Positions 10,145 to 48,505 of a DNA stretch of 64,000 bases are shown piece by piece. Location: contig JBAYFY010000002.1 in assembly GCA_041666945.1 (NCBI GenBank), positions 64,701 through 128,700 on the forward strand. The letters are read 5' to 3'. The position numbers and the translations under genes are program-made. The notes beneath the pieces are model-generated. The model did not search any database. It saw only the letters and a list, made by a program, of their open reading frames with translations, and was not told the DNA's origin. Source of the DNA: Candidatus Buchananbacteria bacterium (GTDB lineage: Bacteria; Patescibacteriota; Patescibacteriia; 2-01-FULL-39-33). The stretch's first letter is position 1. Each line of letters starts with the position of its first letter.

Positions 10145-10357
10145 TCGTCATTTCCGCAATTATAACATCGTCATTCCCGTAATTATAGTATCGTCATTCC
10201 CGTAACTATAATATCGTCATTCCCGTAATTATAGTATCGTCATTCCCGTAACTATAATATCGTCATTCCCGTAACTATAATATCGTCATTCCCGTAACTA
10301 TAATATCGTCATTCCCGTAACTATAATATCGTCATTCCCGCGCAGGCGGGAATCCAG
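10145..10357. repeat. Tandem array of about 8 copies of a 23-bp unit TCGTCATTCCCGTAACTATAATA, ending in a TCGTCATTCCCGCGCAGGCGGGAATCCAG palindrome
   Basis: Perfect and near-perfect direct repeats start at the dnaX stop codon. There are no unique spacers, so this is not a CRISPR array. Confidence 0.85.
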
Positions 10358-10365
10358 ATATTATT

Positions 10366-10490
10366 TGATCCCCGGACATTTTTTAGTTCACTATACTCGC
10401 TGGGATCTCCGGATAAATCCTCCCGCTTACGCTTACGGATTTTCCGAACCTGCCTGCCGGTAGACAGGGATGACATTAGAGGATATTGGC
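10366..10490. repeat. About 90-bp interspersed element (copy A) containing CTGCCGG(T/C)AG(A/G)CAGGGATGAC
   Basis: Aligns with 41745..41835; the shared core is GGATC(T/C)CCGGA(T/C)AAATCCTCCCGCTTACGCTTACGGATTTTCC. Confidence 0.6.
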
Positions 10491-12210: not shown

Positions 12211-12640
12211 GGGATTTTTTAGTTGTCATTCCCGCATCCCTTTCGTCATTCCCGCACTCCCTTCGTCATTCCCGCACTCCCTTCGTCATTCCCGCGTACC
12301 TTGTCTGCCGGCAGGCAGGGGCGGGAATCCAGGTTATAATTTTTTTTACGATACCCCTTCGTCATTCTCACTTTCGTCATTCCCGCACTTCCTTCGTCAT
12401 TCCCGCGAAGGCGGGAATCCAGATTTCTTGTCATTCCCGCGTACCTTTCGTCATTCCCGCACTCCCTTCGTCATTCCCGCGAAGGCGGGAATCCATGCTA
12501 TCATTTTTTATGATACCTTTCTTTAGGAGAAAGGTATCACCAAAGAGTCGCGAGCGAAGCATAAATCATGGCTGGATTTTATGCTCCACCTGCCTGCCGG
12601 CAGGCAGGATTACAAAACTTTTCTGGTCACTCTCGCATAA
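12211..12640. repeat. Dense non-coding repeat field with the GTCATTCCCGC half-site and GCGGGAATCC palindromes
   Basis: Three clusters of 20-bp GTCATTCCCGC half-site repeats, each ending in a GCGGGAATCC palindrome. It also holds a perfect 12-bp-stem hairpin tgatacctttct/agaaaggtatca and CTGCCGGCAGGCAGG palindromes. The listed 195 aa ORF 12111..12698 is just translation of these repeats. Confidence 0.8.
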
Positions 12641-13268: not shown

Positions 13269-13492
13269 ATTCTTCCTTTCTCTTTCTGTGTCATTAGTTT
13301 TTTTCGGCAATATGGCGCAAGCCACTGACCGTTTTTAACGTACTACATATCATCATATAATAGTATACATTAATAATTTTGTCAAGTAGTTTATCCACAA
13401 TTAAGATATTTTGTTTAATTTTAGGTATTTTTTTAAGGAAAAATCATTCCATTTTTTTATTTGTCGGAATTTTGTTATTATTAAAGAAGCTT

Positions 13493-15706
13493 ATGGTCAA
13501 ATATGTTTTACGCGCCGCTCCAATGGCCAAGGATTTTAAAATTGATTATGCCAAGGAGTTAAACGAAGATCAATACAAGGTCGTAACCGAGGGCTACGGG
13601 CCTTGTTTAGTTTTGGCCGGCGCCGGCTCGGGCAAGACGCGGACTCTGGTGTACCGCGTGGTGTATTTGTTGGAGCAAGGCGTGCCCGCTTCCAGCATAA
13701 TGCTCGTGACTTTCACCAACAAAGCGGCCAAGGAAATGTTGGAGCGCATTGAAGTGCTGCTTCACGGCGAGGCCAAGGGGTTGTGGGGTGGGACTTTCCA
13801 TCACTTGGGCAATCGGCTGTTGCGCATGTATGGCGAGCGCATTAATATCGCTAATAACTTTACGATTTTAGATGAAGAGGATTCTTTGACTTTACTCAAG
13901 AATTGTTTGAGCCGCAGTAATCCTCCGGAAGACAAATATTTTCCCAAGGCCAAAGTCATCCGCTCCATAATTTCTCTGTCGCAGAATCTGTGTCAGCCCA
14001 TCCGCGAAGTTATTGCCGCGCGTTACGATTATCTTAAAGACAGCTACTTGCCGTGTATCTTGGAAGCTGCTGATCTATACAAAGAACGCAAAACGCAAAT
14101 CAACGCGTTGGATTTTGACGACCTCCTGATCAAGTGGAACGAACTGCTGGAACAAGCGCCGGAAATAAAAAAGCGTTTGGGTGAGAAGTTCGCCTACATT
14201 TTAATTGATGAATTCCAAGACACCAACGCTTTGCAATCCAAAATCATCGCCAATCTGGCCGCGCCCCAGCGCAATATCCTGGCGGTGGGAGATGACGCCC
14301 AAAGCATCTATGGTTTTCGTGGCGCCGATGTCAACCATATTTTGGATTTTCCCAAGCAGTTCCCCGATGCTAAGATTTTACGGCTGGAGATCAACTATCG
14401 TTCCACTCCCGAGATTCTGGCTTTGGCCGATACTTCCATTAACCATAATGACGCCAAGTTTGAAAAGCATTTGAAAGCGATTCGGGCCAAGGGTGCTAAG
14501 CCGGCCGTGGCGGCTTTGACTGATAATTATCAGCAAGCGGAATTCGTCTGCCAACGGATTCTGGATTTGCAACGCGAAGATGGTTTGCCGCTTAACAGCA
14601 TGGCCGTATTATTTAGATCGCACTTCCAATGTCTGGAATTGGAAATGGAACTCAACAAGCGCAATATTCCATATCAGATGCGTGGGGGACTGCGGTTTTT
14701 TGAACAGGCGCACTTAAAAGATATCCTGGCTTACTTAAAAATCTTAGCCAACTTCCGTGACGAGGTTTCTTGGTTGCGGTTACTTAGTATGCAAGGCGGG
14801 ATTGGCGAGATGACGGCGGAAAAGATCTGGCAATGGTTAAGGCAATTTGATGGCGTTTCTTCAATTTTTTCTACATCTTCTTCCGTCATTCACGACCCCT
14901 CTTCCGTCATTCACGACCCCTCTTCCGTCATTCACGACCCCTCTTCCGTCATTCCCGCGCAGGCGGGAATCCAGCATAATAATTCAACCTGGATTCCTGA
15001 TCAAACCAGGAATGACATTTCCTTGGGCGCTAAGGCCGCCAGTGGCTGGTCGGCTTTAAAGCGCACGCTGGAAAAGATTGCGCGAATAGATAAAAATGAT
15101 TTACCGGCGCTTGTTACCGCTATTATTGATTCGGGTTATGAAAAATATTTGCAGGCCAATTATGAGAATTTTCAGGATCGGTTGGATGATTTGACGCAGT
15201 TGACAGAATTCGTCAAGTCCTATGACAGTTTGGAAAGATTTTTGGCCGATACCGCGTTGTCGGAAAACTTTCAGGGCCAATCGCGCGCGCCGCGGCCGGA
15301 GAATGGCAATGAACAAATAATCTTGTCCACCATTCATCAGGCCAAGGGCCTGGAGTGGCCGGCAGTGTTTGTGATCGGTTTGGCGGAGGGCATGTTCCCG
15401 CACGCCAAGGTTTATGACAAACCGGAGGAACTGGAGGAGGAACGCCGGTTGTTTTACGTGGCTTGCACCCGCGCCAAAGACCAGCTGTATTTGAGTTATC
15501 CATTGTTCGGCCGCGACAGCATGCTGCATCCGTCGCAATTTATTAAGGAACTGCCGAGCAAATTGTATGATCGCTGGGATGTGGAGGCGGGCGAAGACGA
15601 GGTGATTTACGTGGATGAAGAAGGGGAACGCGCGTCAGGTCCGGGCAAACGGAAGGGCATTTTGGATTTTGATCCGGAACTGGAGATTGAGGAATCGGAT
15701 TATTAA
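13493..15706 (+). CDS. UvrD/PcrA/Rep-family ATP-dependent DNA helicase (the start is uncertain: 13493 or 13523)
   Basis: Walker A AGAGSGKTRTLV, the DEFQDTN motif, and the VTRAK-like motif VACTRAKDQLYLSY. The N-terminal codons of the listed ORF overlap an AT-rich promoter region that carries a TTATCCACA box. Confidence 0.85.
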   Translation: MVKYVLRAAPMAKDFKIDYAKELNEDQYKVVTEGYGPCLVLAGAGSGKTRTLVYRVVYLLEQGVPASSIMLVTFTNKAAKEMLERIEVLLHGEAKGLWGGTFHHLGNRLLRMYGERINIANNFTILDEEDSLTLLKNCLSRSNPPEDKYFPKAKVIRSIISLSQNLCQPIREVIAARYDYLKDSYLPCILEAADLYKERKTQINALDFDDLLIKWNELLEQAPEIKKRLGEKFAYILIDEFQDTNALQSKIIANLAAPQRNILAVGDDAQSIYGFRGADVNHILDFPKQFPDAKILRLEINYRSTPEILALADTSINHNDAKFEKHLKAIRAKGAKPAVAALTDNYQQAEFVCQRILDLQREDGLPLNSMAVLFRSHFQCLELEMELNKRNIPYQMRGGLRFFEQAHLKDILAYLKILANFRDEVSWLRLLSMQGGIGEMTAEKIWQWLRQFDGVSSIFSTSSSVIHDPSSVIHDPSSVIHDPSSVIPAQAGIQHNNSTWIPDQTRNDISLGAKAASGWSALKRTLEKIARIDKNDLPALVTAIIDSGYEKYLQANYENFQDRLDDLTQLTEFVKSYDSLERFLADTALSENFQGQSRAPRPENGNEQIILSTIHQAKGLEWPAVFVIGLAEGMFPHAKVYDKPEELEEERRLFYVACTRAKDQLYLSYPLFGRDSMLHPSQFIKELPSKLYDRWDVEAGEDEVIYVDEEGERASGPGKRKGILDFDPELEIEESDY
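14872..14975 (+). repeat. In-frame MITE insertion inside the helicase coding sequence
   Basis: Three copies of the 21-bp unit cttccgtcattcacgacccct are followed by cttccgtcattcccgcgcaggcgggaatccag. It translates in frame as SSVIHDP repeated three times, then SSVIPAQAGIQ. The same palindrome family occurs in intergenic DNA. Confidence 0.8.
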
Positions 15707-18650: not shown

Positions 18651-19631
18651 ATGCGAGTTGTCAGACAATTGAACCATAGTTTTGAAGAGATAATTTGTTT
18701 AGATAACTTACTGGCGGCCTGGCGTGAATTCGCGCGCGGCAAGAGAGGCAAAAAGGATGTCCAGGAGTTTGAGTGGTCTTTGATGGATAATATTATCGCG
18801 CTTCAGGATGATTTGGCAAGCGGCAATTACCGCCATGGCGACTATAAAGATTTTCATATCGACGATCCCAAACCGCGTCATATCCACAAGGCCGGCGTGC
18901 GCGACCGTTTGGTGCATCATGCGGTATACCGCATTCTGTACCCGTATTTTGATAAAAAATTTATCGCCGATTCGTATTCTTGCCGATTAGACAAAGGAAC
19001 GTGTAAGGCCTTAAACCGATTCCGGCAATTCGCTTATCAAGTCGGTCGCAATAATACTCGCGCTTGCTGGATATTGAAAGGCGATATCAGGAAATTTTTT
19101 GCCAGCATTGATCAGAGGATTTTGAAAATTATTTTAGCCGAGTATATTGGCGATAAAAAAATTTTGGATTTGTTAGATAAAATAATTAATAGTTTCGGCA
19201 TTACTAGCAGAGGTTTACCGCTTGGCAATCTTACTTCGCAATTATTGGTTAATATTTATATGAATAAGTTCGATCAATTCGTTAAGAATCAATTAAAAGC
19301 CAAATATTATATCCGCTATGCCGATGATTTTATAATATTTTCAGAAAATAAAAATTATTTGGACGCTTTAATCCCGCAGTTGGATTATTATTTGACGGAC
19401 AAATTAAAATTGAAACTCCATCCGAATAAAATTTTTATAAAAACCCTGGGTTCCGGAGTGGATTTTTTGGGTTGGGTCAATTTTCCACATCATCGAGTTT
19501 TAAGAACTGTGACTAAAAGAAGGATGTTAAAAAGAATAGGAATTAATCCAAGCCGGGAGACGCTGGCATCTTATCTGGGGTTGTTAAGTCATGGTAATAC
19601 CTATAAATTGCTGGTAAAATTGCCAATATAG
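18651..19631 (+). CDS. DGR reverse transcriptase
   Basis: FEEIICLDNLLAAWREFARGKRGKKDV, HIDDPKPRHIHKAGVRDRLVHHAV and the YIRYADDFIIF (YxDD) box. The domain organisation is typical of DGR RTs. Confidence 0.9.
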   Translation: MRVVRQLNHSFEEIICLDNLLAAWREFARGKRGKKDVQEFEWSLMDNIIALQDDLASGNYRHGDYKDFHIDDPKPRHIHKAGVRDRLVHHAVYRILYPYFDKKFIADSYSCRLDKGTCKALNRFRQFAYQVGRNNTRACWILKGDIRKFFASIDQRILKIILAEYIGDKKILDLLDKIINSFGITSRGLPLGNLTSQLLVNIYMNKFDQFVKNQLKAKYYIRYADDFIIFSENKNYLDALIPQLDYYLTDKLKLKLHPNKIFIKTLGSGVDFLGWVNFPHHRVLRTVTKRRMLKRIGINPSRETLASYLGLLSHGNTYKLLVKLPI

Positions 19632-19714
19632 GTGATTTTTGTTAAGATAAATAAGAAATAAATAACGAAGATCCTGGATATTTTCTTGCCAGAAAATTCC
19701 GGGATGACAAAATT

Positions 19715-33412: not shown

Positions 33413-33566
33413 AGGCAATAAGTAACAGGTAACAGGTGAAAAGAAAGGGGATTGCATCCCTTTTCTTTTTTGTAATAATTATGTTATAATATAGGGGTAA
33501 TTATTTTGTCGTTTTTTTAATGTCTTTGCTTGTTACTTTATTACTCATTACTTGTTACTATCAGTA
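33413..33566. repeat. GGCAATAAGTAACAGGTAACAGG and TTACTTTATTACTCATTACTTGTTAC motif copies in the eno-gpmI intergenic region
   Basis: Members of the GTAAYAAGTAA/TTACTTATTAC family in opposite orientations, giving hairpin potential. Confidence 0.55.
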
Positions 33567-33568
33567 AA

Positions 33569-35140
33569 ATGCCAGTAAAATCAAAAAAAACAAACAAGCC
33601 GATTAGCAAGGTTATTCTTCTAATCCTCGATGGTTGGGGAATCGGCAAAAAAGACGGCTCCAACCCTATTTTTTTGGCTAAACCAAAATTCATTGATTCT
33701 TTGTATAAAAAATATCCCTGGACTGAATTGTCCGCCGCCGGCAAATACGTCGGTTTGCCGCCGAATCAAGTGGGCAACTCCGAAGCCGGCCATATGAATT
33801 TGGGCGCCGGACGCATCGCCGACCAAGACGTGGTTAAGATTTCCAAAAACATCAGTACGGGAGAATTTTTCAAAAACCCCGCTTTTTTGTCGGCCGTAAA
33901 TCACGTCAAAAAAAACCGATCCGCTTTGCATCTGATGGGCATGTTAAGCAACGGCCAGAGTCCCCATAGCGATCTTGATCATGTTTTGGCGCTTCTGACC
34001 TTGACTAGAAAATATTCAGTGAAAAAAGTTTATCTGCATCTGTTTACCGACGGCCGCGATTCTCCGCCGCTGTCTTCGCTTAAATTAATCATGGCTTTGG
34101 AGCGGTCGCTTCAGCCCAATGAGATTATAGCCACCGTTATCGGCCGATTTTTTGCCATGGATCGCAAAAAGGTTTGGGCTCGCACTATTAGGGCTTATAA
34201 CGCCATGACCGACGGCCGGCGCATGCATTATGCCGACAGCCCGCAAGACGGCATTAGCCGCGCTTATAATGCCGGAGTATCCGATGAATTCATTGAACCG
34301 ATTGTCATCAGACAGAAAGGCAAGTTGACGCCGCGCGTCAGCGACAATGACGCCATTATTTTTTTTAATTTGCGTAGCGATCGCGCCCGGCAACTGGCCA
34401 AGCCGTTTGTCCAGCATCAGTTTGAAGAAAAAAATCCCGGCTTTGTTAAACGCAAGCAAGTTTTGCAAAACATCGTTTTTGTGGCCATGACCGACTTCGG
34501 GCCGGATTTGGACAGCATCCTGACCGCTTTTCCTTCGGAGGATTTAAAAAACACTTTGCCCATGGTATTGAAAGATAAGAAACAGATTTATATCGCCGAA
34601 AGCGAAAAATACGCTCATGTAACCTTCTTCTTTAACGGCGGTTATGCCGATCCGGTAGCCGGAGAATCCAGGATTAATATCCCTTCGCCCCATGTGGACA
34701 GGTACGATAAGACGCCGGCCATGTCCACCCGGGAGATAACCGAGAAAGTCATCGCTTCGCTCAAAAAATACGACTTCATTTGCGCCAATATTGCTTGTCC
34801 GGATATGGTCGGCCACACCAGCAACATGGAAGCGGCGCAGAAGACGGTCAAGGCCGTTGACAAGTATGTCAAGCGAATCGCGGCGGCGGCGCTTAAGAAT
34901 AAGGCCGTTTTGCTGATTACCGCCGATCATGGTAACATTGAATATAAACTCAACTTGGAAACCAAAGAACGGCTGACCGAGCACACCGTTAATCCCGTGC
35001 CGTTTATCGTGGTGAGCGACAGCTTGGATAAATCATTGAAACTTAAACGGAACGGCGTTTTAGGCAATGTCGCTCCCACCGTTATTAAATTATTCGGTTT
35101 GAACAAACCGAAAGAAATGAGCAAAAACAGCCTTTTGTGA
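33569..35140 (+). CDS. gpmI: 2,3-bisphosphoglycerate-independent phosphoglycerate mutase, copy 1
   Basis: LILDGWG, SEAGHMNLGAG, and ADHGN. The start is the internal Met MPVKSKK, downstream of the repeat. Confidence 0.9.
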   Translation: MPVKSKKTNKPISKVILLILDGWGIGKKDGSNPIFLAKPKFIDSLYKKYPWTELSAAGKYVGLPPNQVGNSEAGHMNLGAGRIADQDVVKISKNISTGEFFKNPAFLSAVNHVKKNRSALHLMGMLSNGQSPHSDLDHVLALLTLTRKYSVKKVYLHLFTDGRDSPPLSSLKLIMALERSLQPNEIIATVIGRFFAMDRKKVWARTIRAYNAMTDGRRMHYADSPQDGISRAYNAGVSDEFIEPIVIRQKGKLTPRVSDNDAIIFFNLRSDRARQLAKPFVQHQFEEKNPGFVKRKQVLQNIVFVAMTDFGPDLDSILTAFPSEDLKNTLPMVLKDKKQIYIAESEKYAHVTFFFNGGYADPVAGESRINIPSPHVDRYDKTPAMSTREITEKVIASLKKYDFICANIACPDMVGHTSNMEAAQKTVKAVDKYVKRIAAAALKNKAVLLITADHGNIEYKLNLETKERLTEHTVNPVPFIVVSDSLDKSLKLKRNGVLGNVAPTVIKLFGLNKPKEMSKNSLL

Positions 35141-35188: not shown

Positions 35189-36781
35189 ATGAGTTCTAAT
35201 AATACAACCAAACCAAAACCGGTCGTACTGATGATTTTAGACGGCTGGGGCGCAGCGCCGCCTTCCCGATCTAACGCCATTACTTTGGCCAAAACGCCGG
35301 GCGTTACCGGACTGATAAAAACTTATCCGGCCATGACTTTGCAGGCCTCGGGCGAAGCCGTGGGTTTGTCTTGGGGAGAAATCGGCAATTCCGAAGTCGG
35401 CCATCTTAACTTGGGTTCCGGCAAGTTGGTGTATCAGAACCTGCCGCGCATCAATAAGTCAATCGCCGACGGCTCGTTTTTTGAGAATGAGAAATTCATT
35501 GACGCTTTAAAACACGCCAAGAAAAATAAAGGCAAAGTCCATTTGTTGGGATTGATTTCTTCCGGCGGCGTGCACAGCTATATTGACCATCTGTTTGCCT
35601 TGCTGGAATTGTGCCAAAAGGAAAAATTCCGCGAAGTGTATATCCACGGCATCTTGGACGGCCGCGACATGCCGTATAATTCCGGCATTGATTTTGTGGA
35701 CAAAATAAAAAGCAAGACCGAAGAGTTGGGCGTGGGCCGAATTGCCACTTTGTCCGGCCGGTTCTACGCCATGGATCGCGACAATCATTGGGAGCGCGTT
35801 GTTTTGGCGTATAATGCCATGGTCAAAGGCGGGGCGGCGGAAAAATTCAGCGATCCGGGCGAAGCAGTCAGGGCCTCTTACGGCAAGAAAATTTATGATG
35901 AAGAATTCGTGCCGGTGGTGATTGAAGACGATGGCCAACCTGTTGCCGTTATCACTCCCGGCGATGCCGTGATATTTTTTAATTTCCGCGCCGATCGCGC
36001 CCGGGAAATCTCCAAAGCGTTTGTTCTGCCCGGTTTTGAAAAATTTGAACGGCAATATTTGAAAAATTTGTATTTCGTGGCCATGACCGAATATGAAAAG
36101 GATGTTCCCATGGAAATCGCTTTTCCGCCGGAAACCATAGAAAAGCCGCTGGCTAAAGTCATTGCCGATGCCGGCTTGACCCAATTGCATATCGCGGAAA
36201 CGGAAAAGTACGCTCACGTTACCTTCTTTTTTAACGGCGGCGCCGAGCAAGAATTTTCAGGCGAAGACAGGATTTTGGTGCCATCGCCGCGCGTCGCTTC
36301 TTACGCGGAAAAGCCGGAGATGTCGGCTAAGGAAGTGGCGCAAAAAACCATTGACGCCATTATGTCCGACAAATACGATTTTATCGTGTTGAATTTCGCC
36401 AACTGCGATATGGTCGGTCATACCGGCGATTTGAAAGCGACTATTAAAGCCGTGGAAACGGTGGATAGCTGTGTCAAAAAAATCACCGAGGTCATCCTGG
36501 CCAAGGGCGGAGTGGCACTGATTACCGCCGATCATGGCAATGCTGAAGAGCTGGTCAATTTGCAATCGGGCGATATTGACAAGGAACACAGCACATACCC
36601 CGTGCCGCTTGTCATTATCGGCAAGGAATGGGAAGGCAAGAACGCCGGTTTTCCGGAAGTGCCGGGCGGGGATTTGTCTTTGGTTCAGCCCGCCGGGCTA
36701 TTGTCCGACGTGGCGCCGACGATTATTGGCATTATGGGACTGAAACAGCCGACGGAAATGACAGGCAAACCGCTCATTTAA
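35189..36781 (+). CDS. gpmI: 2,3-bisphosphoglycerate-independent phosphoglycerate mutase, copy 2 (tandem paralog)
   Basis: MILDGWG, SEVGHLNLGSG, and ADHGN. It diverges from copy 1 (roughly 40-50% identity by eye). Confidence 0.9.
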   Translation: MSSNNTTKPKPVVLMILDGWGAAPPSRSNAITLAKTPGVTGLIKTYPAMTLQASGEAVGLSWGEIGNSEVGHLNLGSGKLVYQNLPRINKSIADGSFFENEKFIDALKHAKKNKGKVHLLGLISSGGVHSYIDHLFALLELCQKEKFREVYIHGILDGRDMPYNSGIDFVDKIKSKTEELGVGRIATLSGRFYAMDRDNHWERVVLAYNAMVKGGAAEKFSDPGEAVRASYGKKIYDEEFVPVVIEDDGQPVAVITPGDAVIFFNFRADRAREISKAFVLPGFEKFERQYLKNLYFVAMTEYEKDVPMEIAFPPETIEKPLAKVIADAGLTQLHIAETEKYAHVTFFFNGGAEQEFSGEDRILVPSPRVASYAEKPEMSAKEVAQKTIDAIMSDKYDFIVLNFANCDMVGHTGDLKATIKAVETVDSCVKKITEVILAKGGVALITADHGNAEELVNLQSGDIDKEHSTYPVPLVIIGKEWEGKNAGFPEVPGGDLSLVQPAGLLSDVAPTIIGIMGLKQPTEMTGKPLI

Positions 36782-39237: not shown

Positions 39238-40473
39238 ATGCGATTAATTGAAACCGTAAAATTATCTTTTTCCGTTTTGCGCACCAACCGGACGCGCAGT
39301 TTTTTGACTTCGCTCGGGATTATCATCGGCATTGCCGCCGTCATCGTGATTATCTCCGCCGGCGCCGGCGCGCAATCATTGATTGTCAATCAATTCAACG
39401 CTATCGGTACTAACTTAATCGGCATTCTGCCCGGCTCAAGCGATGAAGACGGTCCGCCCGCCTCCGCTTTCGGCATTATTCTGCAAACGCTCAAATACGA
39501 GGACGCCCAGGCCATCGCCCAAAGCGTGCCCCACGTTACCGCCGTTTCTTCTTATAACACCGGCATGGCCACCGCCTCATATCAAAGCGCCAAAACGGAC
39601 GCAACTTATTACGGCGTCATGCCTGAATATTTAGACGTGGAAGACACGGGCGTGGACAAGGGGAGGTTTTTTGACAACGATGAAGACAGGGGCAGCGTTA
39701 AAGTCGCCGTGCTGGGCTGGCAAGTGGCGAGGGATTTGTTTGAGGGGCAGGAACCCGTGGGCAAGAAGGTTAAAATCGGCAAGGAATTTTTTGAAGTTAT
39801 CGGCGTGATGCGCCAGCGCGGCGTTTCCGGCTTTCAGAATAATGATGAAATCATTTTGATTCCGGCGCAAACCGCGCAAAAAATAATGCTGGGCGTGCGC
39901 CATGTCGGCTTTATCCGCGCCAAGGTTGATAAAAAGGAAAACTTGCCGCAGGCGGTGGACGATATCCGCTTGCTGTTGCGCGACCGCCATAATCTGCTGG
40001 AATCAAAAGTTGATGATTTTAATATTCGCAATACGGCCGACGCCATTAAGACCTTGACTTCCATCACTGATGTGTTGAAATTTTTCCTGGCCGCCATCGC
40101 CGGCATTTCCCTGTTAGTCGGCGGCGTAGGCGTTATGAATATCATGCTGGCCTCGGTCAATGAGCGCGTCCGCGAAATCGGCCTGCGCAAAGCCGTCGGC
40201 GCCAAGCCCAATGACATTATGGTGCAGTTTTTGGCCGAGTCGATCACCGTCACTTTGACCGGCGGCGTCGTAGGCATTATCATTGGCTCGTTGATTTCGG
40301 CGTTAGTTGCCATAGTCGCCAGATATTTGGGCTATGATTGGGATTTGGTGGTTTCGCCGCTATCCATATTTATGGGTTTTGGCGTGGCCTTTGTCGTCGG
40401 TTTGATTTTTGGCATTTATCCGGCTCGCCGGGCGGCCAAACTTAACTCCATTGAGGCGTTAAGGTGGGAATAA
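39238..40473 (+). CDS. ABC transporter permease (FtsX/MacB-type)
   Basis: An N-terminal transmembrane helix, a large periplasmic domain, and a C-terminal FtsX 3-TM domain. Translationally coupled to the ATPase gene. Confidence 0.85.
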   Translation: MRLIETVKLSFSVLRTNRTRSFLTSLGIIIGIAAVIVIISAGAGAQSLIVNQFNAIGTNLIGILPGSSDEDGPPASAFGIILQTLKYEDAQAIAQSVPHVTAVSSYNTGMATASYQSAKTDATYYGVMPEYLDVEDTGVDKGRFFDNDEDRGSVKVAVLGWQVARDLFEGQEPVGKKVKIGKEFFEVIGVMRQRGVSGFQNNDEIILIPAQTAQKIMLGVRHVGFIRAKVDKKENLPQAVDDIRLLLRDRHNLLESKVDDFNIRNTADAIKTLTSITDVLKFFLAAIAGISLLVGGVGVMNIMLASVNERVREIGLRKAVGAKPNDIMVQFLAESITVTLTGGVVGIIIGSLISALVAIVARYLGYDWDLVVSPLSIFMGFGVAFVVGLIFGIYPARRAAKLNSIEALRWE

Positions 40474-40506
40474 TAAGTTAAGTTGTTAATCGTCTTTTTA
40501 GCTGGT

Positions 40507-40535
40507 AAATCGCTTATTTCAGGCGATTTTTTTAA
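40507..40535 (+). terminator. Rho-independent terminator after the exporter operon
   Basis: aaatcgc-ttatttcag-gcgattt followed by tttttaat. Confidence 0.5.
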
Positions 40536-40585
40536 TTTTATTTTATCTAATTTTAGCTATAATAAGCTATATCAAGCTATATTAT

Positions 40586-40626
40586 GTGGATAAAACACTT
40601 GACAAAATATTTAAGGTGTGATATAA
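40586..40626 (+). promoter_or_regulatory. Perfect consensus extended -10 sigma70 promoter with an upstream TGTGGATAA
   Basis: TTGACA at 40598-40603, a 17-nt spacer, and TGaTATAAT at 40618-40626. TGTGGATAA sits at 40586-40594. It is almost identical in architecture to the promoter at 16977..17026. Confidence 0.6.
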
Positions 40627-40631
40627 TAGCT

Positions 40632-41320
40632 TATTCAAGATAGCGGTTGTGGATAAGTCGATATATAGACAATAATCATTATCTTGCCAGCAGTTTAAAA
40701 ACTGTTTTAAAAGAGTTCTTCGGGGCTCTTTGTCAGGGCGGCATATGGCTTATGTCATAGATCGCCCTTGACAAAGGTTCCCGAGATAGGGGAGTATTGG
40801 AAAACGGAACATTAAATTAAATAATTTGTTCGCGGCAGCTTGTCGCCGCATTGATATGATTAAGGCGTATGCTTGTCCGCCTAAATCTGTTCCAAAGCCA
40901 AAAGCCGAGGAGCATAGGAGGAGATTAAGCTGAAGAGGGGGCCTGGCTTGAAATTATATATTCGCCAACCGCCTTAATTCACTTCTTCAAGTCTTGATTG
41001 TATCAATGCGGTGATTACTTTGGCCGTCAAAGCAGGCGGGCAAACTTGTCTACTGAAAGGTGGGCACGCCGCAAGCACTTTCTGAAAGAAGAACTTTCCC
41101 GCCGTCGGGCTATTATCCCGCCGGATCGGTAGATCTCCTTTCTCCCGGGGAGGCGTTGTAGCAATACGCGCCTCCCCCACACGCCTCAGACAGTATGGTT
41201 CGAGAGTGTATAATCAAATCCTCACAAAGGAAACTTGGTTTTACGCTCACGGCCGAAATACTGTTTGAGGCGTGTGTTGCAAAATAGCAATTTCATTTAC
41301 GAGCCATCTCGTAAAGGAGG
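40632..41320 (+). other. About 690 nt apparently non-coding transcribed region, a candidate structured RNA or long leader
   Basis: No ORF of 60 aa or more on either strand. Many stable hairpins, for example ctttgtcagggcg...cgcccttgacaaag and ggggaggcg-ttgtagcaatac-gcgcctcccc, and a long-range pairing ttaaggcg/cgccttaa. It lies between a strong promoter and the zinc-ribbon mini-genes. Confidence 0.3.
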
Positions 41321-41324
41321 GCCT

Positions 41325-41525
41325 ATGATAGCTCAATGCTGCGTTTGTCATAAGGTGCGTTTGTCTGGTAATGTTTGGGTGGGTCAATTTATACCCCCGG
41401 GAGAACAGGTCTCCCATGGCTATTGCCCGGAATGCGCCGCACAAGCGCGTGAAGGCATGCAGCGGGAATTGGCCGTTGATCGGCAAAGACGGGAGCCCGC
41501 CAATGGCAATGGCGAGAAAAAATAA
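41325..41525 (+). CDS. Small zinc-ribbon protein A (66 aa)
   Basis: An AAGGAGG Shine-Dalgarno sits 4 nt upstream. The protein carries CCVC...(27 aa)...CPEC. Confidence 0.5.
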   Translation: MIAQCCVCHKVRLSGNVWVGQFIPPGEQVSHGYCPECAAQAREGMQRELAVDRQRREPANGNGEKK

Positions 41526-41691
41526 ATGCCCGGCTTGTATTAAAATCGAAATAACGCCGGGTCAGTGGAAACACGCCGTTTTGCTTGCCGGCGAAGAAAC
41601 AGTGCCGCAATACTGCCCGCATTGCAAGGCAGTAATTGAGGGATATGCTCGAATGGTTACGATCAATTACGGTCGCGACCGAAAAAAATAA
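41503..41691 (+). CDS. Small zinc-ribbon protein B (62 aa), a paralog of A that overlaps it out of frame
   Basis: CPAC...(27 aa)...CPHC with the same spacing as A. The start overlaps the 3' end of A by 23 nt. There is no Shine-Dalgarno, so translational coupling is possible. Confidence 0.42.
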   Translation: MAMARKNKCPACIKIEITPGQWKHAVLLAGEETVPQYCPHCKAVIEGYARMVTINYGRDRKK

Positions 41692-41707
41692 AGTAAGAAC
41701 ATTGTGA

Positions 41708-41741
41708 GGAGGAGGCCGAGCGCTTCCTCCTTTCGCTTTTT
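41708..41741 (+). terminator. Rho-independent terminator after the zinc-ribbon pair
   Basis: ggaggaggc-cgagc-gcttcctcc followed by tttcgcttttt. Confidence 0.5.
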
Positions 41742-41744
41742 AAA

Positions 41745-41835
41745 GATTATGGATCCCCGGACAAATCCTCCCGCTTACGCTTACGGATTTTCCAGGCCTA
41801 TCTGCCGGCAGGCAGGGATGACGATAAAGGATATT
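41745..41835. repeat. About 90-bp interspersed element (copy B)
   Basis: Aligns with 10366..10490 and contains CTGCCGGCAGGCAGGGATGAC. Confidence 0.6.
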
Positions 41836-42242
41836 GGTTAATAATTATTTATCCACAGCCCGACTCTTGACAATTATATTGTTTTTACGAAAATTTGTTA
41901 TATAATTTTATATTAAGGGAGGACATTAAGCGCCAAGCATTTTCAATCGCACTTTCCTAAAATTTTTTTTAGGATCACACTTAAGTGTGATTTCGAGAAT
42001 TCTTATCGCGTCTTCTCCGAGTCCCGCCCCCGTGGCGGGACTTTTAATTGGCTAATGAGCGAGCGAACCAGCGCTTCAAAGCGCTGGATTCCGAGCGAGC
42101 GACGCCAATATAGTCAAATACTGCTCGGCTTGCCGAGCTATTTAGTACGCAAGTTTCATTATCACCCTTATCACCATAGGGCTTGCCCCGAGGACTATAT
42201 TGGTTGATTTTTTTGATTAATGCTATAATTTAATTAAGCACT

Positions 42243-42620
42243 ATGTCGCTTAAGCAATTAATCATTACCATAATCATCGCCACCTTGTTGTGTTGGGCCA
42301 GCTGGCTGCTGGTTATTTTTGAGGTGGATCCGACGACCGCCGGCTTTTACGGCCTGCTGATTTTTTATTCCAGCATGTTTTTGTCTTTGCTGGGCTTGTT
42401 TTTTTTGATCAGTTTCGGTTTTCGCAAAATGTTTAATCGGTTGGAAATGGAATACAAGCTGGTGGGCATGTCTTTTCGCCAATCGTTTTTTTTCTCGTTG
42501 GCGATAGTGGGATTTTTCTTTTTGCAGAGCAAGGATTTATTGACTTGGTGGAATAGTATTCTGCTGGTCTTGGCCTTGGTGATTTTAGAATTTTTCTTTT
42601 TGAGTTATCGGAGAAAATAG
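42243..42620 (+). CDS. Hypothetical 4-TM membrane protein
   Basis: 125 aa with four hydrophobic segments. Confidence 0.6.
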   Translation: MSLKQLIITIIIATLLCWASWLLVIFEVDPTTAGFYGLLIFYSSMFLSLLGLFFLISFGFRKMFNRLEMEYKLVGMSFRQSFFFSLAIVGFFFLQSKDLLTWWNSILLVLALVILEFFFLSYRRK

Positions 42621-42664: not shown

Positions 42665-42975
42665 ATTTTCTCTTTTCTTTTTTCTACGTCACCCCCTCCT
42701 GTCATTCCCGCACCCCCTTCGTCATTCCCGCACCCTCTTTGTCATTCCCGCGTAGGCGGGAATCCAAGTTATAATTTTTTTGTCATTCCCGCACCCTTTT
42801 GTCATTCCCGCACCCTCTTTGTCATTCCCGCGAAGGCGGGAATCCAGGTTTAGAAATTTAGATTTCATTTCTGGTACCTTTCTCTATTGTCATTTCGACC
42901 GAAGCCGACGTAAACGTCGGCGCAGTGGAGAAATCGCTTGAATTAAATTAAAGGGATTCCTCCGCTACGGTCGGA
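42665..42975. repeat. Repeat field upstream of pheS with an internally deleted inverted-repeat element
   Basis: Two clusters of GTCATTCCCGC 20-bp half-site repeats, each ending in a GCGGGAATCC palindrome. At 42885..42975 there is an internally deleted element with inverted termini TTGTCATTTCGACCGAAGC...GCTACGGTCGGAATGACAA. The listed pheS ORF start lies inside it. Confidence 0.8.
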
Positions 42976-43020
42976 ATGACAAAAGGTAATTTGACTAAAC
43001 TAAAGCAAAACAGTTATAAT

Positions 43021-44202: not shown

Positions 44203-45150
44203 ATGAGATATATGTCTATTCCAAATTTTGAACAAATAATGAGTCCAATGATTAAGGATATCATTGATGGCGAAAATCATTCAATGAATGATATCGTCGA
44301 TCATTTATCGGAATTTTTTAATTTAACTGAAGATGAAAAAAATGTTAGATATCCCACTAGTGGAGCAAAAATTTTTCAAAATAGAGTTAGATTTGCTCGC
44401 TTATATTTAATGAAGGCTGGTTTAATCGAATCACCAATCCGTGGTTTTATAAAACTAACATCAGATGGGTTAATGCTTTTTAAAAAAGAAACCCCAAACA
44501 TTAATTTAGATTATCTTGAAAAATTACCGAAATTTCAAGAATTTCAAAAAATGCAAAAAGAAACACAAAGAAATAAAAAAGATAGTTCTAATAATGAAAG
44601 AATTGTTTTGCATGCAGAAAATAATCTGGAACAAATTCCCGAAGAACAATTAGAAAATGCATTCCAGATAATTAATGATAATTTATCCGTTGAAATATTA
44701 GATACTTTAAAAAAGTGTCAACCATTATTTTTTGAAAAAATAGTAGTTGATCTTGTATTAAAAATGGGCTACGGTGGTTCGTTTAAGGATGCTGGTGAAG
44801 CCATAGGTAAAAGTGGTGATGGTGGAATTGATGGGATAATTAAGGAAGATAGACTTGGTTTAGATTTAATTTATTTACAAGCTAAAAGGTGGGAAAATGT
44901 AGTCCCAGTAAAAGAGATAAGAGATTTTGCTGGATCCTTAATGTCTAAAAAGGCTAAGAAGGGAATTTTTATTACTACATCAAGTTATCCCACGTCAGCT
45001 TTCGAATTTGTAAAATCAGTTGACCATAGAATAATACTAATCGATGGTCAACAATTAGCGAAATTATTAATTGATTTTAATGTTGGAGTTACAACGGAAT
45101 CAGTTTATGAAATTAAAAAAATTGATGGCGATTATTTTATAGAAGAATAA
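44203..45150 (+). CDS. mrr: Mrr-family restriction endonuclease (Mrr_N winged helix plus Mrr_cat)
   Basis: The catalytic region carries GGSFKDAGEAIGKSGDGGIDGII ... YLQAKRW. It is AT-rich relative to its flanks and is inserted between pheS and pheT. Confidence 0.85.
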   Translation: MRYMSIPNFEQIMSPMIKDIIDGENHSMNDIVDHLSEFFNLTEDEKNVRYPTSGAKIFQNRVRFARLYLMKAGLIESPIRGFIKLTSDGLMLFKKETPNINLDYLEKLPKFQEFQKMQKETQRNKKDSSNNERIVLHAENNLEQIPEEQLENAFQIINDNLSVEILDTLKKCQPLFFEKIVVDLVLKMGYGGSFKDAGEAIGKSGDGGIDGIIKEDRLGLDLIYLQAKRWENVVPVKEIRDFAGSLMSKKAKKGIFITTSSYPTSAFEFVKSVDHRIILIDGQQLAKLLIDFNVGVTTESVYEIKKIDGDYFIEE

Positions 45151-45162
45151 TTTATAAACTTA

Positions 45163-45195
45163 AATATCTCGTACAACTGGCTAAAGTCGTAGCCC
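45163..45195 (+). repeat. 33-bp direct duplication of the pheT 5' end
   Basis: ttaaatatctcgtacaactggctaaagtcgtag at 45163 versus ctaaatatctcttacaactggctaaagtcgtat at 46088, the first codons of pheT. Confidence 0.7.
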
Positions 45196-45663
45196 GTTGT
45201 CATTCCGACCGAAGCGTAGCGTAGTGGAGGAATCCCTTTAAAAGCACTTTATGGTTAAATATTACTACTTGTATATTATGGCTTCAGAATCCGGAACTTT
45301 ATATGTCGGGATTACAAATAATCTTGGTCGGCGAGTATGGGAACATAAAAATGAAATTATTGAGGGCTTTACTAAAAAATACGGCTGTAAGAGATTGGTT
45401 TATTATGAATACGGACAAGATGTTAATGGCGCTATCTGTAGAGAAAAACAAATTAAAAATTGGAATAGAAAAAAGAAAGAATTTTTGATAAAAACAATTA
45501 ACCCAAAATGGATTGATTTAAGCAAAGAAATGTTCGGTTTTAAAGAATTTTGAGGGATCCCTCCACTCGGCCTTGAGGCCTCGGTCGGGATGACAAGAAA
45601 AAGAAAGGCCTCGGTCGGGATGACAAGAAAAAGAAAGGCCTCGGTCGGGATGACAAGAAAACA
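45185..45663 (+). mobile_element. MITE-family element carrying a GIY-YIG nuclease gene, a putative autonomous copy, with a triplicated right end
   Basis: The left terminus GTCATTCCGACCGAAGCG...GTGGAGGAATCCC at 45185-45235 and the inverted right terminus GGGATCCCTCCAC...CCTCGGTCGGGATGAC at 45553-45596 bracket the GIY-YIG ORF. Three 30-bp tandem copies of the right terminus follow at 45577-45663. The termini match the empty element at 42885..42975. Confidence 0.5.
45251..45553 (+). CDS. GIY-YIG nuclease superfamily protein (about 100 aa)
   Basis: YYLYIMASESGTLYVGITNNLGRRVWEHK, matching the GIY, YIG, R and E motifs. Confidence 0.8.
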   Translation: MVKYYYLYIMASESGTLYVGITNNLGRRVWEHKNEIIEGFTKKYGCKRLVYYEYGQDVNGAICREKQIKNWNRKKKEFLIKTINPKWIDLSKEMFGFKEF

Positions 45664-45665
45664 AT

Positions 45666-46079
45666 TTGATTAAAAATATGAAAGGTACGGCAGAACAATT
45701 CAAAAAAGATAATATAAAAAAGTATCATAAAGGTGCAATTCTTAAACTAAGAGATATAGCAAGAAAAACAAAGTTGGTTTTTGAGTTTGTTGAGGATCGT
45801 TTCTATTATACTCAAAGCAATTTATCAGAAAAAGTATTCTTTATTGATAAGTTAAAGAAATTAGATGTTGATAAAAGCAAGTTAGCTTATCCCAATGGGT
45901 GGGAAGTCGGAGAAATTGAGTACAGATTTGGTTATTATATTATAAGTCAATATGGGAGAAGAAAAGGACATTGGACTTTTGCCCAATTTTGCCCAATATT
46001 TCCCCTTAATGATCTAAAAAATATTTTACAGAAAATGAAAAATAAAGGCATTATAGGAAAAAATTTTAAAATATTATAA
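45666..46079 (+). CDS. Hypothetical protein (137 aa), part of the pheS/pheT insertion
   Basis: Six-frame ORF. It is AT-rich and lies between the GIY-YIG element and pheT. Confidence 0.5.
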   Translation: MIKNMKGTAEQFKKDNIKKYHKGAILKLRDIARKTKLVFEFVEDRFYYTQSNLSEKVFFIDKLKKLDVDKSKLAYPNGWEVGEIEYRFGYYIISQYGRRKGHWTFAQFCPIFPLNDLKNILQKMKNKGIIGKNFKIL

Positions 46080-46081
46080 AT

Positions 46082-48505
46082 ATGAATCTAAATATCTCTT
46101 ACAACTGGCTAAAGTCGTATGTCAAAACCAGTTTGACGCCGCAGGAATTTGCCAAACGGATTTCGCTTTCCGGACCATCAGTGGATAGAGTTCAGGAAAA
46201 AAGCACTGATTTTGGTAATGTCGTGGTCGGAAAAATGTTGGAAATCAGTAAACACCCCAATGCCGACAAATTGAATGTCGCCAAAGTTGATGTGGGCAAA
46301 AAAGAGCCGATCCAAGTGATTTTTGGACAGATGGCGGTGCTTAAAGTCGGTGACCAATTGCCGGTGGCCATTGCGCCAACAACCCTACCGAGCGGAGTAG
46401 AAATACTGGAGAGAGAGATGCGCGGAGTTAAATCGCAAGGCATGTGCTGTTTGGATAGTGAAATCGGATTATCCGACCAGGATAGAGTGACTTTTTTTCC
46501 GCCAGAAGTAAAGCCGGGAACCCCGATCGCTAAGGCGTTAAAATTAGAGGAAGACGCGATTTTGGATATTGAAATCACTTCCAATCGCCCGGACGCCATG
46601 AGCGTTATCGGTATCGCCCGAGAGGCGGCCGCGATTTTGGACGCTAAGTTTTTATATAAACAACCAAACCCCTCCCTCGCTATCCGCAAATCCGTCATTC
46701 CCGCGCACCCAGAGGCGGGAATCCATAATGCTGGATCCCCAACTAAATTGGGGATGACGAAAAAGGGATTGCCGTTATCAATAAAAATAACCGAGCCCAG
46801 GGTCTGCCCCCGCTATTCCGCGATTGTAATGACTGATGTCAAAGTCGGCGCGTCGCCTCTGTGGATGCAACAGCGTTTGCTCGCTTCGGGTTTGCGGCCG
46901 ATTAATAATTTAGTAGACATCACTAACTATATTCTACTTGAATACGGCCAGCCCATGCACGTATTTGATTACGATAAACTGCTGGGCGGGGAAATCAATG
47001 TCCGCAAAGCCAAGAAGAGTGAAAAGATTTTGGCGTTAGACGGCAAAGAATACGAATTGTCCGTCGATCAACTGGTAATCGCTGACAAGCAAAATCCGGT
47101 CGCCGTGGCCGGCGTGATGGGCGGAGAATTGTCAGCCGCTACCGCCGAGACCAAAACCATCGTGTTTGAATGCGCCAACTTCAATCCCGTTTCCGTCCGC
47201 AAGACCTCGCGCGTTTTGAATTTGCGTTCGGAGAGCTCGGCGCTCTACGAAAAGGGGATTAGTCCGGAAAATGTTACGGCCGCCATGTTGCGCGCCATTG
47301 AATTGGCCCAGCAGTTGTGCGACGCCAAGGTTGCCGGCAAATTGATTGACGAAAAATCATACAAATACAAAGATCGGGAAATAATTTTGGACTTGGAGCG
47401 GGTTGATTCTGCTTTGGGCGTCAAAATCAAACCGGCAGAAATAAAAAATAATCTGGAAGCGTTGGGCTTTAAAGTGATCGCCAAACGCGACAAGTTTAAA
47501 GTAACAATCCCTTGGTGGCGAGAGAACGACATGGAAGGCCAGCATGATTTAATTGAAGAAATCGCTCGGATGCACGGCTATCAGAATCTGCCGACGGAAT
47601 TAATGTCCGGCGCTTTGCCTCAAACCATAGCCACGGTTAATTTCGCGCTGGAGGACAAGATTAAGGACGCTCTGGTCGGTTTCGGTTTGACCGAGGTTTA
47701 CACTTATTCTTTTATTTCCGAAAAGCAAATCCTGGGCGCGGGTTTAAAATCCGCGGATCATATCAAGATCGCCAACCCTTTAAGCGCTGATTTTGAGTAC
47801 ATGCGCACCTCGCTTTTGCCCGGCGTTCTGCAGATTATCGCCGAGAATCAGGGATTTTTCCCGGCCGGCAGATTGTTTGATTTGAGCCAGGTATATTTGC
47901 CTTTGGGCGCGAATGATTTGGCTGATGAGAAATTCAAATTGCTCGCGGTTTGCTATGGCGCTGATGCTGAAGGCATGGCCGCCGATGCCAGAGGCGTTTT
48001 GGATGGCTTAATGCAGCGACTCAATATTGACAATTTGACTTTTAAAAAGAAACCGGCCGGCTCGGAAATATATGTTAATGATGTGAAGCTGGGTGAAATC
48101 AAAGTTATTGATAACAAAATTTTGTCCGCTTTCGGCATCAAGAAAGCCGTAGCCGCGGTGGAGTTGGATTTCGCCGCTGTGGCCGCGCTGGCCAAATCCG
48201 CGCCGACTTATCGGCCGATTCCCAAATTTCCGGCGATTGAGCTGGATTTGTCCATGGAGGTTGATAATGTGATTACTTTTGCCGAAGTGGCCAATGTCGC
48301 CAGCGATGCGGGAGCGCCGTTAGTGGATAAGGTTGATTTCTTGTCTGTCTATCAAGGTGAGAAATTACCGGAAGGCAAGAAAGCATTGGCCATTAGAATG
48401 GTTTATCGCGATTTGAATAAGACCCTGGAACTCGCCGAAGCGCAAATCGCGCATGATAAAGTTGTAGCGGAATTAAAAAAGAGTTATAATATAGTTGTAA
48501 GATAA
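46082..48505 (+). CDS. pheT: Phenylalanine--tRNA ligase beta subunit
   Basis: An N-terminal tRNA-binding (OB) domain, then B3/B4, B5, the class II core-like domain, and a C-terminal FDX-ACB domain. It contains an in-frame repeat insertion. Confidence 0.9.
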   Translation: MNLNISYNWLKSYVKTSLTPQEFAKRISLSGPSVDRVQEKSTDFGNVVVGKMLEISKHPNADKLNVAKVDVGKKEPIQVIFGQMAVLKVGDQLPVAIAPTTLPSGVEILEREMRGVKSQGMCCLDSEIGLSDQDRVTFFPPEVKPGTPIAKALKLEEDAILDIEITSNRPDAMSVIGIAREAAAILDAKFLYKQPNPSLAIRKSVIPAHPEAGIHNAGSPTKLGMTKKGLPLSIKITEPRVCPRYSAIVMTDVKVGASPLWMQQRLLASGLRPINNLVDITNYILLEYGQPMHVFDYDKLLGGEINVRKAKKSEKILALDGKEYELSVDQLVIADKQNPVAVAGVMGGELSAATAETKTIVFECANFNPVSVRKTSRVLNLRSESSALYEKGISPENVTAAMLRAIELAQQLCDAKVAGKLIDEKSYKYKDREIILDLERVDSALGVKIKPAEIKNNLEALGFKVIAKRDKFKVTIPWWRENDMEGQHDLIEEIARMHGYQNLPTELMSGALPQTIATVNFALEDKIKDALVGFGLTEVYTYSFISEKQILGAGLKSADHIKIANPLSADFEYMRTSLLPGVLQIIAENQGFFPAGRLFDLSQVYLPLGANDLADEKFKLLAVCYGADAEGMAADARGVLDGLMQRLNIDNLTFKKKPAGSEIYVNDVKLGEIKVIDNKILSAFGIKKAVAAVELDFAAVAALAKSAPTYRPIPKFPAIELDLSMEVDNVITFAEVANVASDAGAPLVDKVDFLSVYQGEKLPEGKKALAIRMVYRDLNKTLELAEAQIAHDKVVAELKKSYNIVVR
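46672..46765 (+). repeat. In-frame MITE insertion inside the pheT coding sequence
   Basis: ccgtcattcccgcgcacccagaggcgggaatccataatgctggatccccaactaaattggggatgacgaaaaagggat. It translates in frame as SVIPAHPEAGIHNAGSPTKLGMTKKG. Confidence 0.75.

Follow-up and report, generated by a model that had tools for sequence, protein, structure and literature searches.

Hairpins that carry the tag CGTC are known from several bacterial systems. The CGTC-1 family has a CGTC tag, an 8-bp stem starting with AT, a 4-nucleotide (nt) loop and a CCA tail, occurs mostly as head-to-head dimers and has been equated with dRS3 and with RPE-6 of Rickettsia, whilst RPE-4 corresponds to CGTC-4 (Di Nocera et al. 2013, PMC3733652). 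Variable loops are known for some CGTC-1 members. Copies lying in frame within genes, described in Proteobacteria, are "more than 50% dimers", amount to 20–30 amino acids (aa) and are enriched in UvrD/Rep helicases, other repair genes and tRNA synthetases (PMC3733652). The corresponding NTS hairpin of Neisseria is bound as single-stranded DNA (ssDNA) and cut a few nt upstream by the nuclease SsnA, a GIY-YIG protein of 94 aa with a single domain, and NTS repeats typically lie on both sides of the ssnA gene; the C directly after the palindrome is critical for binding, and loop extensions are tolerated (Chenal et al. 2025, PMC11893778). A 21-mer inside NTS, ATTCCCGCGCAGGCGGGAATC, is also the Neisseria REP master sequence of Bertels and Rainey (bioRxiv 10.1101/2021.07.10.451892). 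Whether Ssn enzymes multiply these repeats was left open (PMC3733652, PMC11893778). Here we analyse a palindromic segment within pheT, the gene of the phenylalanine–tRNA ligase beta subunit, in a stretch of 64,000 nt from a Candidatus Buchananbacteria bacterium (contig JBAYFY010000002.1; hereafter the window). The segment is of a kind of selfish DNA already known, the type of the CGTC-tagged REP, the Neisseria NTS and the Rickettsia RPE. We consider it very probable that it is a non-autonomous head-to-head CGTC-tagged REP dimer (CGTC-1, dRS3/NTS or Ssn-related motif (SRM)) that landed in the pheT frame and persists there as a harmless passenger.

An earlier note on this DNA had drawn attention to two palindromes read through within pheT and had named them a MITE (a miniature transposable element with inverted repeats). 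The features concerned are these, all in window coordinates.

46082..48505, + strand: pheT, the intact host gene (five Pfam domains, TIGR00472 score).
46693..46759, + strand: the insert, a head-to-head dimer of CGTC-tagged hairpins with the tags CGTC...GACG outward (codon table, inverted repeats, orthologues without the insert).
46693..46726, + strand: left arm of the insert, an NTS/CGTC-1-type hairpin, CGTCATTCCCGCG-CACCCAGAG-GCGGGAATCCAT (stem search, comparison with the NTS consensus).
46733..46759, + strand: right arm of the insert, an inverted and diverged hairpin, GGATCCCCAA-CTAAA-TTGGGGATGACG (second palindrome, like arms elsewhere).

The pheT open reading frame (ORF) is uninterrupted over its 807 aa and all five Pfam domains are present (tRNA_bind at residues 47–147, B3_4 at 242–413, B5, the CLM domain and FDX-ACB). 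The protein is 100% identical to one from a Candidatus Buchananbacteria metagenome-assembled genome (MAG) and scores 710 bits against the equivalog model TIGR00472 (pheT_bact), for which the curated cutoff is 403. The frame thus continues between the tRNA-binding and B3/B4 domains as the earlier note had stated, the frameshift that it had considered as a possible objection is absent, and this pheT is not a pseudogene. The insert core, CGTCATTCCCGCGCACCCAGAGGCGGGAATCCATAATGCTGGATCCCCAACTAAATTGGGGATGACG, reads as (S)VIPAHPEAGIHNAGSPTKLGMT (residues 204/205–226) with no stop and no frameshift, and adds 22–23 aa (66–69 nt), a multiple of three. The somewhat longer peptide SVIPAHPEAGIHNAGSPTKLGMTKKG (residues 204–229) lies between tRNA_bind and B3_4, and the tryptic peptide of the insert, between K203 and K222, is SVIPAHPEAGIHNAGSPTK. 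The sequence quoted in the earlier note is found at 46692..46769, although the start given there, 46672, falls 20 nt upstream of the element; its insertion relative to relatives is real but smaller than the ~30 aa proposed. In the AlphaFold2 model of PheT (mean pLDDT 85) the insert is a coil between a helix (175–185) and a strand (233–236), with pLDDT of ~90 on both sides; values below 50 occur only at residues 205–227 and 507–517. The model thereby predicts a disordered loop for the insert, which lies in the linker joining the B3/B4 domain to the N-terminal B1/tRNA-binding part.

Comparison with orthologues shows that the segment is additional sequence. We aligned 36 PheT orthologues, used the 120 best homologues for motif spacing (~109 scorable) and measured linker length in 117 full-length homologues. 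In the five nearest orthologues (P0002, P0004, P0005, P0006 and P0008; 69–73% identical by BLASTP, the closest two 77–78% outside the linker) PNLNIK runs directly into DGQKDLKVKV. A DNA alignment with two 22-kb syntenic loci (L001 and L003) has the same gap at the insert site, and the half-site GTCATTCCCGC, present in 19 exact copies in the 64 kb of the window, is absent from both. An equivalent segment in repeat-free relatives, which the earlier note had held up as the finding that would tell against an insertion, is accordingly missing from P0002, P0004 and P0005, whose loci L001 and L003 are those without GTCATTCCCGC. SNRPD and CxRY are spaced 45–46 aa apart in 85 of the ~109 scorable homologues and 70 aa apart here.

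Both palindromes reported earlier are present. The first is ATTCCCGC-N10-GCGGGAAT (46697..46722) and the second GGATCCCC-N9-GGGGATGAC (46733..46758), and the outer ends of the insert, CGTCATTCCC and GGGGATGACG, form imperfect inverted repeats of 10 nt. In its left arm the insert has the NTS/dRS3 motif of Neisseria (CGTCATTCCCGCG..GCGGGAATCC), the loop being extended by 6 nt. This arm shares with CGTC-1/NTS the CGTC tag (46693..46696, answered by a GACG at 46756..46759 at the end of the right arm), the 8-bp stem starting with AT, in which ATTCCCGC and GCGGGAAT match exactly (46697..46704 and 46715..46722), an intact CCA tail with the C directly after the palindrome (GGGAAT-CCA, 46717..46725) and the head-to-head dimer arrangement. 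It differs in its loop of 10 nt (GCACCCAGAG), where the canonical loop and those of the other six copies in the window have 4 nt; the extra 6 nt stay in frame and add 2 aa. The right arm, in reverse complement CGTCATCCCCAA..TTGGGGATCC, has diverged from the CGTC-1/NTS form, and is of the same type as GTCATCCCC..GGGGATCC, the arm with which NTS is usually paired in inverted orientation in other genomes. Folded as ssDNA, the insert forms a three-hairpin junction with z = −3.4 relative to shuffled sequences.

The likeness to CGTC-1/NTS extends beyond the pheT copy, as three copies in the window equal the NTS consensus exactly, intergenic copies lie just past the 3′ ends of genes, and in-frame dimers occur in a helicase and a tRNA-synthetase gene. 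The host sets it apart: Patescibacteria (Candidate Phyla Radiation, CPR) is a phylum listed in neither PMC3733652 nor PMC11893778. With the Rickettsia RPE the insert has in common that a small palindromic repeat lies in frame in a housekeeping gene, at a place which the protein tolerates, and is missing from orthologues; the host lineage and lifestyle are different and the element is shorter, at 60–66 nt. RPE-1 is about 100–150 nt long. A scan of the insert peptides against NCBIfam at E-values up to 10 returned no family, the presence of an RPE model in that library being unchecked. From a classical MITE the insert differs in its imperfect 10-nt termini, in having no target-site duplication at its flanks, and in that no insertion sequence (IS) transposase was found in the window. 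The in-frame repeat insertion described by the earlier note therefore stands and the MITE label does not; the element is properly called a head-to-head dimer, lying in frame, of REP hairpins of the CGTC-1/NTS type.

The pheT copy is one member of a family spread over the window, the other members of which are as follows.

10147..10475, + strand: eight 23-nt half-site units, then an exact NTS (10330..10357), then a long composite right arm ending in GGGATGAC; intergenic (motif searches).
12225..12496, + strand: three intergenic half-site arrays, each with an NTS-type hairpin at its end (motif searches).
14879..15016, + strand: in-frame insert of 46 aa in a PcrA/UvrD-like helicase, made up of three 21-nt half-site units and a complete NTS head-to-head dimer (absent from the orthologue P0122).
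42701..42847, + strand: two intergenic arrays, each of two to three units of GTCATTCCCGC plus a 9-nt pyrimidine-rich spacer and each ending in a complete NTS-type hairpin (motif searches).
42887..42980, + strand: gene-less head-to-head dimer of a second hairpin family (motif searches).

The window has seven occurrences of the motif ATTCCCGC-N4-20-GCGGGAAT, where shuffles give an expectation of 0.00, and 27 of GTCATTCCCGC with at most one mismatch, where 1.36 are expected. Since both motifs are far above the shuffle expectation and the ssDNA fold has the z-score given above, the pheT palindromes are not due to chance. The 28-nt NTS consensus CGTCATTCCCGCGMAVGCGGGAATCYRG is matched exactly at 10330, 12395 and 14947, and the SRM pattern additionally matches 12469 and 42820. 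One hairpin of the arrays at 12225..12496 has a second palindrome nested in its loop, and the arrays at 42701..42847 lie just past the 3′ end of an ORF, upstream of pheS. All five repeat loci of the window lie on the + strand, which is G-rich, with a positive GC skew along nearly all of the window. Neither an Rfam search at gathering thresholds nor a tRNA scan, both run over the whole window, gave any match; the repeats are therefore not a curated RNA family.

The half-site arrays have a common architecture, in which GTCATTCCCGC and a spacer of 8–12 nt, nearly always pyrimidine-rich, recur in 2–16 units with one complete hairpin at the end. They were seen in the window at 10147–10357, 12225–12496, 42701–42847 and 14879–14947 and elsewhere in L203 (5553–5900), L125, L193, L150, L168 and L134, always on the side of the reported SsnA cut. 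Among the matches listed, the same architecture occurs in Gammaproteobacteria, Rhodoferax, Dehalococcoidia, Saccharibacteria, Omnitrophica, Neisseria, Rickettsia and others. The text of PMC3733652 and of PMC11893778 makes no mention of tandem arrays of the 5′ half-site.

The insert in the helicase gene shows that pheT is not an isolated case. The helicase ORF (13379–15706; P0121, 737 aa) contains (SVIHDPS)x3 followed by SVIPAQAGIQHNNSTWIPDQTRND, which is missing from the 84%-identical orthologue P0122, and P0127 and P0138 have other repeat-like inserts at the same alignment position, so that the helicase loop is a second recurrent insertion site beside the PheT linker. From its two inserts the earlier note had argued for a systematic phenomenon in this genome, affecting two essential genes. 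The phenomenon is indeed systematic, as the helicase carries 46 extra aa of the same repeat and the PheT linker has inserts in other Patescibacteria. It is not special to this genome, however: the repeat class spans many bacterial phyla and intragenic copies have been published (PMC3733652). Of the two genes, pheT is clearly essential, whereas for the helicase this is an assumption.

Recurrence is also seen at the PheT linker itself. The linker exceeds the mode by 8 aa or more in 10 of the 117 full-length homologues, and each of these ten has nearest neighbours, up to 84–85% identical, in which the linker is empty. In one of them (P0064, locus L248, 49% identical) the linker contains a canonical dimer of 59 nt, TGTCATTCCCGCGAAAGCGGGAATCCAGGCTGCTGGATCCCCGATCAGGTCGGGGATGAC, which lies upstream of the insert position in the window by five codons and has a compensatory stem change in the right arm relative to the window copy. 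P0003 has the other NTS-type insert among the PheT homologues. The linker of P0009 (L245) holds CGTCATCCCGAGCG...GCAATGACG, from another hairpin family, and those of P0012 (L247) and P0050 (L249) one inverted arm each. A scan of metagenomes for the exact dimer junction gave two loci only, one of them the pheT of P0064. The linker inserts thus belong to at least two hairpin families and differ in position by a few codons, for which repeated independent capture in a permissive linker, rather than one precise target site, is the likeliest explanation. A single ancient insertion common to P0001, P0003 and P0064 is less likely, given closer relatives with an empty linker and insertion points 3–5 codons apart. 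A canonical dimer is 60 nt long including one flanking base and, on either strand, has two of its three frames open, so that many random hits in coding regions would spare the gene; the window copy, on the + strand, is open only in the frame actually used.

Upstream of the insert lies a small gene that resembles ssnA, within a unit of its own.

45251..45553, + strand: single-domain GIY-YIG protein of 100 aa, a candidate Ssn-family ssDNA nuclease (Pfam GIY-YIG, 6.5e-13).
45198..45236, + strand: left flanking hairpin of the GIY-YIG unit, of the second CGTC/TGTC-tagged family, TGTCATTCCGACCGAAGCGTAGCGTAGTGGAGGAATCCC (hairpin search; the palindrome is weak).
45554..45654, + strand: right flanking inverted hairpin of the unit, GGGATCCCTCC...CGGTCGGGATGAC (hairpin proper 45554..45594).

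The ORF ends 530 nt before the pheT start and 1.1 kb upstream of the insert. Its GIY-YIG domain covers residues 4–76 and Pfam finds no other; residues resembling the catalytic GIY, YIG, Arg, Glu and Asn positions were identified by eye only, and the closest solved structures are those of UPF0213 GIY-YIG proteins. Beyond the right flanking hairpin its outer half-site recurs twice more with a 30-nt period (GGGATGAC at 45587, 45617 and 45647). Neither flanking hairpin matches the SRM regular expression, and the dimer at 42887..42980 corresponds in miniature to the unit around the gene. The arrangement is like that of NTS-ssnA-NTS units in that a single-domain GIY-YIG protein of 100 aa is encoded between inverted tagged hairpins, and the pheT insert resembles a gene-less miniature of such a unit. 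It is unlike them in that the hairpins around the gene are of another family. The Ssn-like gene is probably cognate to this second family and not to the NTS-type copies.

Homologues in unrelated genomes connect this protein with the canonical motif. In 240 comparison loci (2.06 Mb), collected solely by NTS-type patterns, phmmer identified eight ORFs homologous to the window protein (E-values 1e-21 to 1e-29). In six of the eight (L032, L067, L091, L108, L219 and L236) inverted SRM/NTS copies ~320–400 nt apart lie on both sides, and three (L067, L108 and L219) are enclosed by directly adjacent motif pairs. The homologue in L067, between two inverted canonical NTS copies, is 46% identical to the window protein (BLASTP, E = 2e-27). 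Adjacent +/− motif pairs are mostly spaced 0–99 nt (62 of 81), as in mini-dimers like the pheT insert, and 8 of the 81 are spaced 250–350 nt; seven of these eight hold an ORF of 78–103 aa, three of them GIY-YIG and three in viral contigs and not GIY-YIG. The latter (L038, L039 and L045) are viral or prophage contigs from IMG/VR in which inverted NTS pairs 260–270 nt apart enclose small genes. Exact NTS is very common in IMG/VR, with more than 120 contigs among the matches listed.

The GIY-YIG unit forms part of a lower-GC island (44203–46079) between pheS and pheT, which also holds an Mrr-type restriction endonuclease gene and a 137-aa ORF without a family. The island is absent from relatives, which carry unrelated genes at this site (a methyltransferase, hypothetical proteins), so that it is a variable cargo site.

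From these results we suggest that the repeat class spreads by an ssDNA process tied to small GIY-YIG Ssn nucleases, which would bind the hairpin and cut a few nt 5′ of it. Because the hairpins of the neighbouring Ssn-like gene belong to a different family, the NTS-type copies may be served by another enzyme elsewhere in the genome. If the + strand is the lagging-strand template, it would expose the hairpins as single strands during replication, and the + strand bias of the five repeat loci, together with the positive GC skew, may reflect this exposure. The extra 22 aa of PheT are most likely translated and functionally neutral. Removal of the insert as an intein, as an intron or by a programmed process was rejected, as it contains no such motifs, is only 22 aa long and nothing supports excision.

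Several observations weigh against this explanation. The pheT copy matches neither the NTS (CGTCATTCCCGCGMAVGCGGGAATCYRG) nor the SRM search pattern, neither giving a match at 46.7 kb; its left arm fails both regular expressions by loop length only, 1 nt above the allowed limit, and its right-arm stem is diverged, so that it may be an old fossil that no longer moves. The hairpins around the neighbouring GIY-YIG gene differ in family from those of the insert, and the gene's closeness may be a coincidence. Transposition has not been demonstrated for any Ssn-family member; what has been published for Neisseria is a role in cutting incoming ssDNA. The placement of all five loci on one strand is not significant alone (two-sided p ~0.06), and the direction of replication is deduced from skew and gene orientation only. 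In the JGI metagenomes no empty-site allele was found, but as that collection does not contain the window contig this is uninformative.

A broader proposal goes further than the harmless dimer that we favour. Ssn nucleases and CGTC hairpins would together form a mobile ssDNA system of undescribed mechanism, with the half-site arrays as its footprint growing on the cut side; in small CPR genomes core enzymes (PheT, PcrA) would have their surface linkers reshaped by it again and again, and some hairpins would be kept because of a role, for example in restricting recombination. The half-site arrays with pyrimidine-rich spacers range, among the matches listed, from CPR bacteria to Proteobacteria and Chloroflexi. 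As a whole we regard this proposal as unlikely.

It is also unlikely that the pheT element is a REPIN, a doublet of REPs for whose copying a RAYT (a tyrosine transposase of the IS200/IS605 type) is responsible, as has been proposed for the identical 21-mer of Neisseria; there, the master sequence was attributed to a Group 2 RAYT (bioRxiv 10.1101/2021.07.10.451892). The inverted doublet, the many copies and the shared 21-mer suit such an origin, as does the one-strand bias of the repeats, which fits single-strand transposition. The tag, however, is CGTC and not GTAG, and the ~55 ORFs of the window include no RAYT, Y1_Tnp or IS transposase. Across the 240 loci, GIY-YIG is the only recurrent cargo that we recognised between inverted motif pairs (phmmer and inspection by eye), and no RAYT was recognised amongst the cargo ORFs, which were not scanned with Pfam. 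Di Nocera et al. likewise found no RAYT flanked by CGTC repeats (PMC3733652).

It is improbable that the hairpin pair is kept in pheT for a function, either as an Ssn recognition site limiting recombination across the pheS–pheT island or as an RNA structure modulating translation between two PheT domains. In Neisseria, transformation does drop in an SsnA-dependent way for genes that lie between NTS copies, and the tolerance of SsnA for extensions at the loop position would allow the pheT copy to be functional (PMC11893778). NTS copies at 42.7 and 46.7 kb, in one orientation, bracket pheS, the Mrr nuclease gene and the GIY-YIG gene, and the recurrence of inserts in the same linker would also suit a function. 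Yet most PheT orthologues, the nearest included, have no insert, and the presence of unrelated hairpin families and degraded remnants in the same linker agrees better with tolerance than with function. The compensatory change between the window and L248, which would suit retained function, may merely mirror two source subfamilies. Finally, it is scarcely credible that the segment is no insertion at all, being a native lineage-specific loop palindromic by chance, or an assembly artefact or pseudogene: the sequence does come from a MAG and the exact PheT protein is on one contig only, but motif enrichment at zero chance expectation contradicts a chance palindrome, orthologues align on both flanks, an intact gene above the curated cutoff contradicts a pseudogene, and the same dimer type is found in pheT of independent assemblies (L248/L250).

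CPR genomes are tiny and thought to be streamlined. Our search of the literature found no report of such in-frame repeats for Patescibacteria/CPR, the group to which Buchananbacteria belong. The new points seem to be the host phylum, the two recurrent insertion sites (PheT linker and helicase) and the occurrence of half-site arrays over many phyla. Rickettsia and some Proteobacteria were already known to carry palindromic selfish DNA within the reading frames of essential proteins, and CPR bacteria are hereby added to them. The B1-to-B3 linker of PheT and the loop of the PcrA/UvrD-like helicase are repeatedly hit sites, which is of use in annotation, where such segments otherwise stand as puzzling "insertions", and marks both as permissive sites for protein engineering. 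With an Ssn-like nuclease gene and three hairpin families within 64 kb, the window offers a compact test bed for a possible Ssn-driven multiplication of repeats.

The third of these families, CCGGAYAAATCCTCCCGCTTACGCTTACGGATTTTCC...CTGCCGGCAGGCAGGGATGAC, is found at 10410–10475 and 41753–41822 and also at 12300–12320 and 12589–12610; it contains the palindrome CCTGCCTGCCGGCAGGCAGG, which is also the one nested inside the NTS loop at 12300.

The first ATG of the pheS ORF (42976) falls in the right arm, GGAATGAC, of the dimer at 42887..42980. This ORF has 377 aa, compared with 343–361 aa in six related loci. The true pheS start is probably downstream of 42976, and repeats that abut or supply start codons may inflate annotated N-termini.

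Three further regions of the window were noted. At 40473–42243, 1.7 kb with few genes and no Rfam or tRNA match has only small Cys-rich ORFs (e.g. 41371–41691) and may hold an unrecognised RNA or degraded genes. Tandem paralogues of cofactor-independent phosphoglycerate mutase (iPGM) lie at 33530–35140 and 35189–36781; in relatives the syntenic loci start inside the one iPGM gene before the transporter genes, the position of the second being outside those loci. An ORF at 18651–19631 encodes a 326-aa reverse transcriptase that scores 132 bits on the group II intron reverse transcriptase/maturase model, well below its cutoff, and has weak matches to retron and DRT defence reverse transcriptases; a repeat right arm (..CCGGGATGAC) is found just downstream of it, at ~19665–19708.

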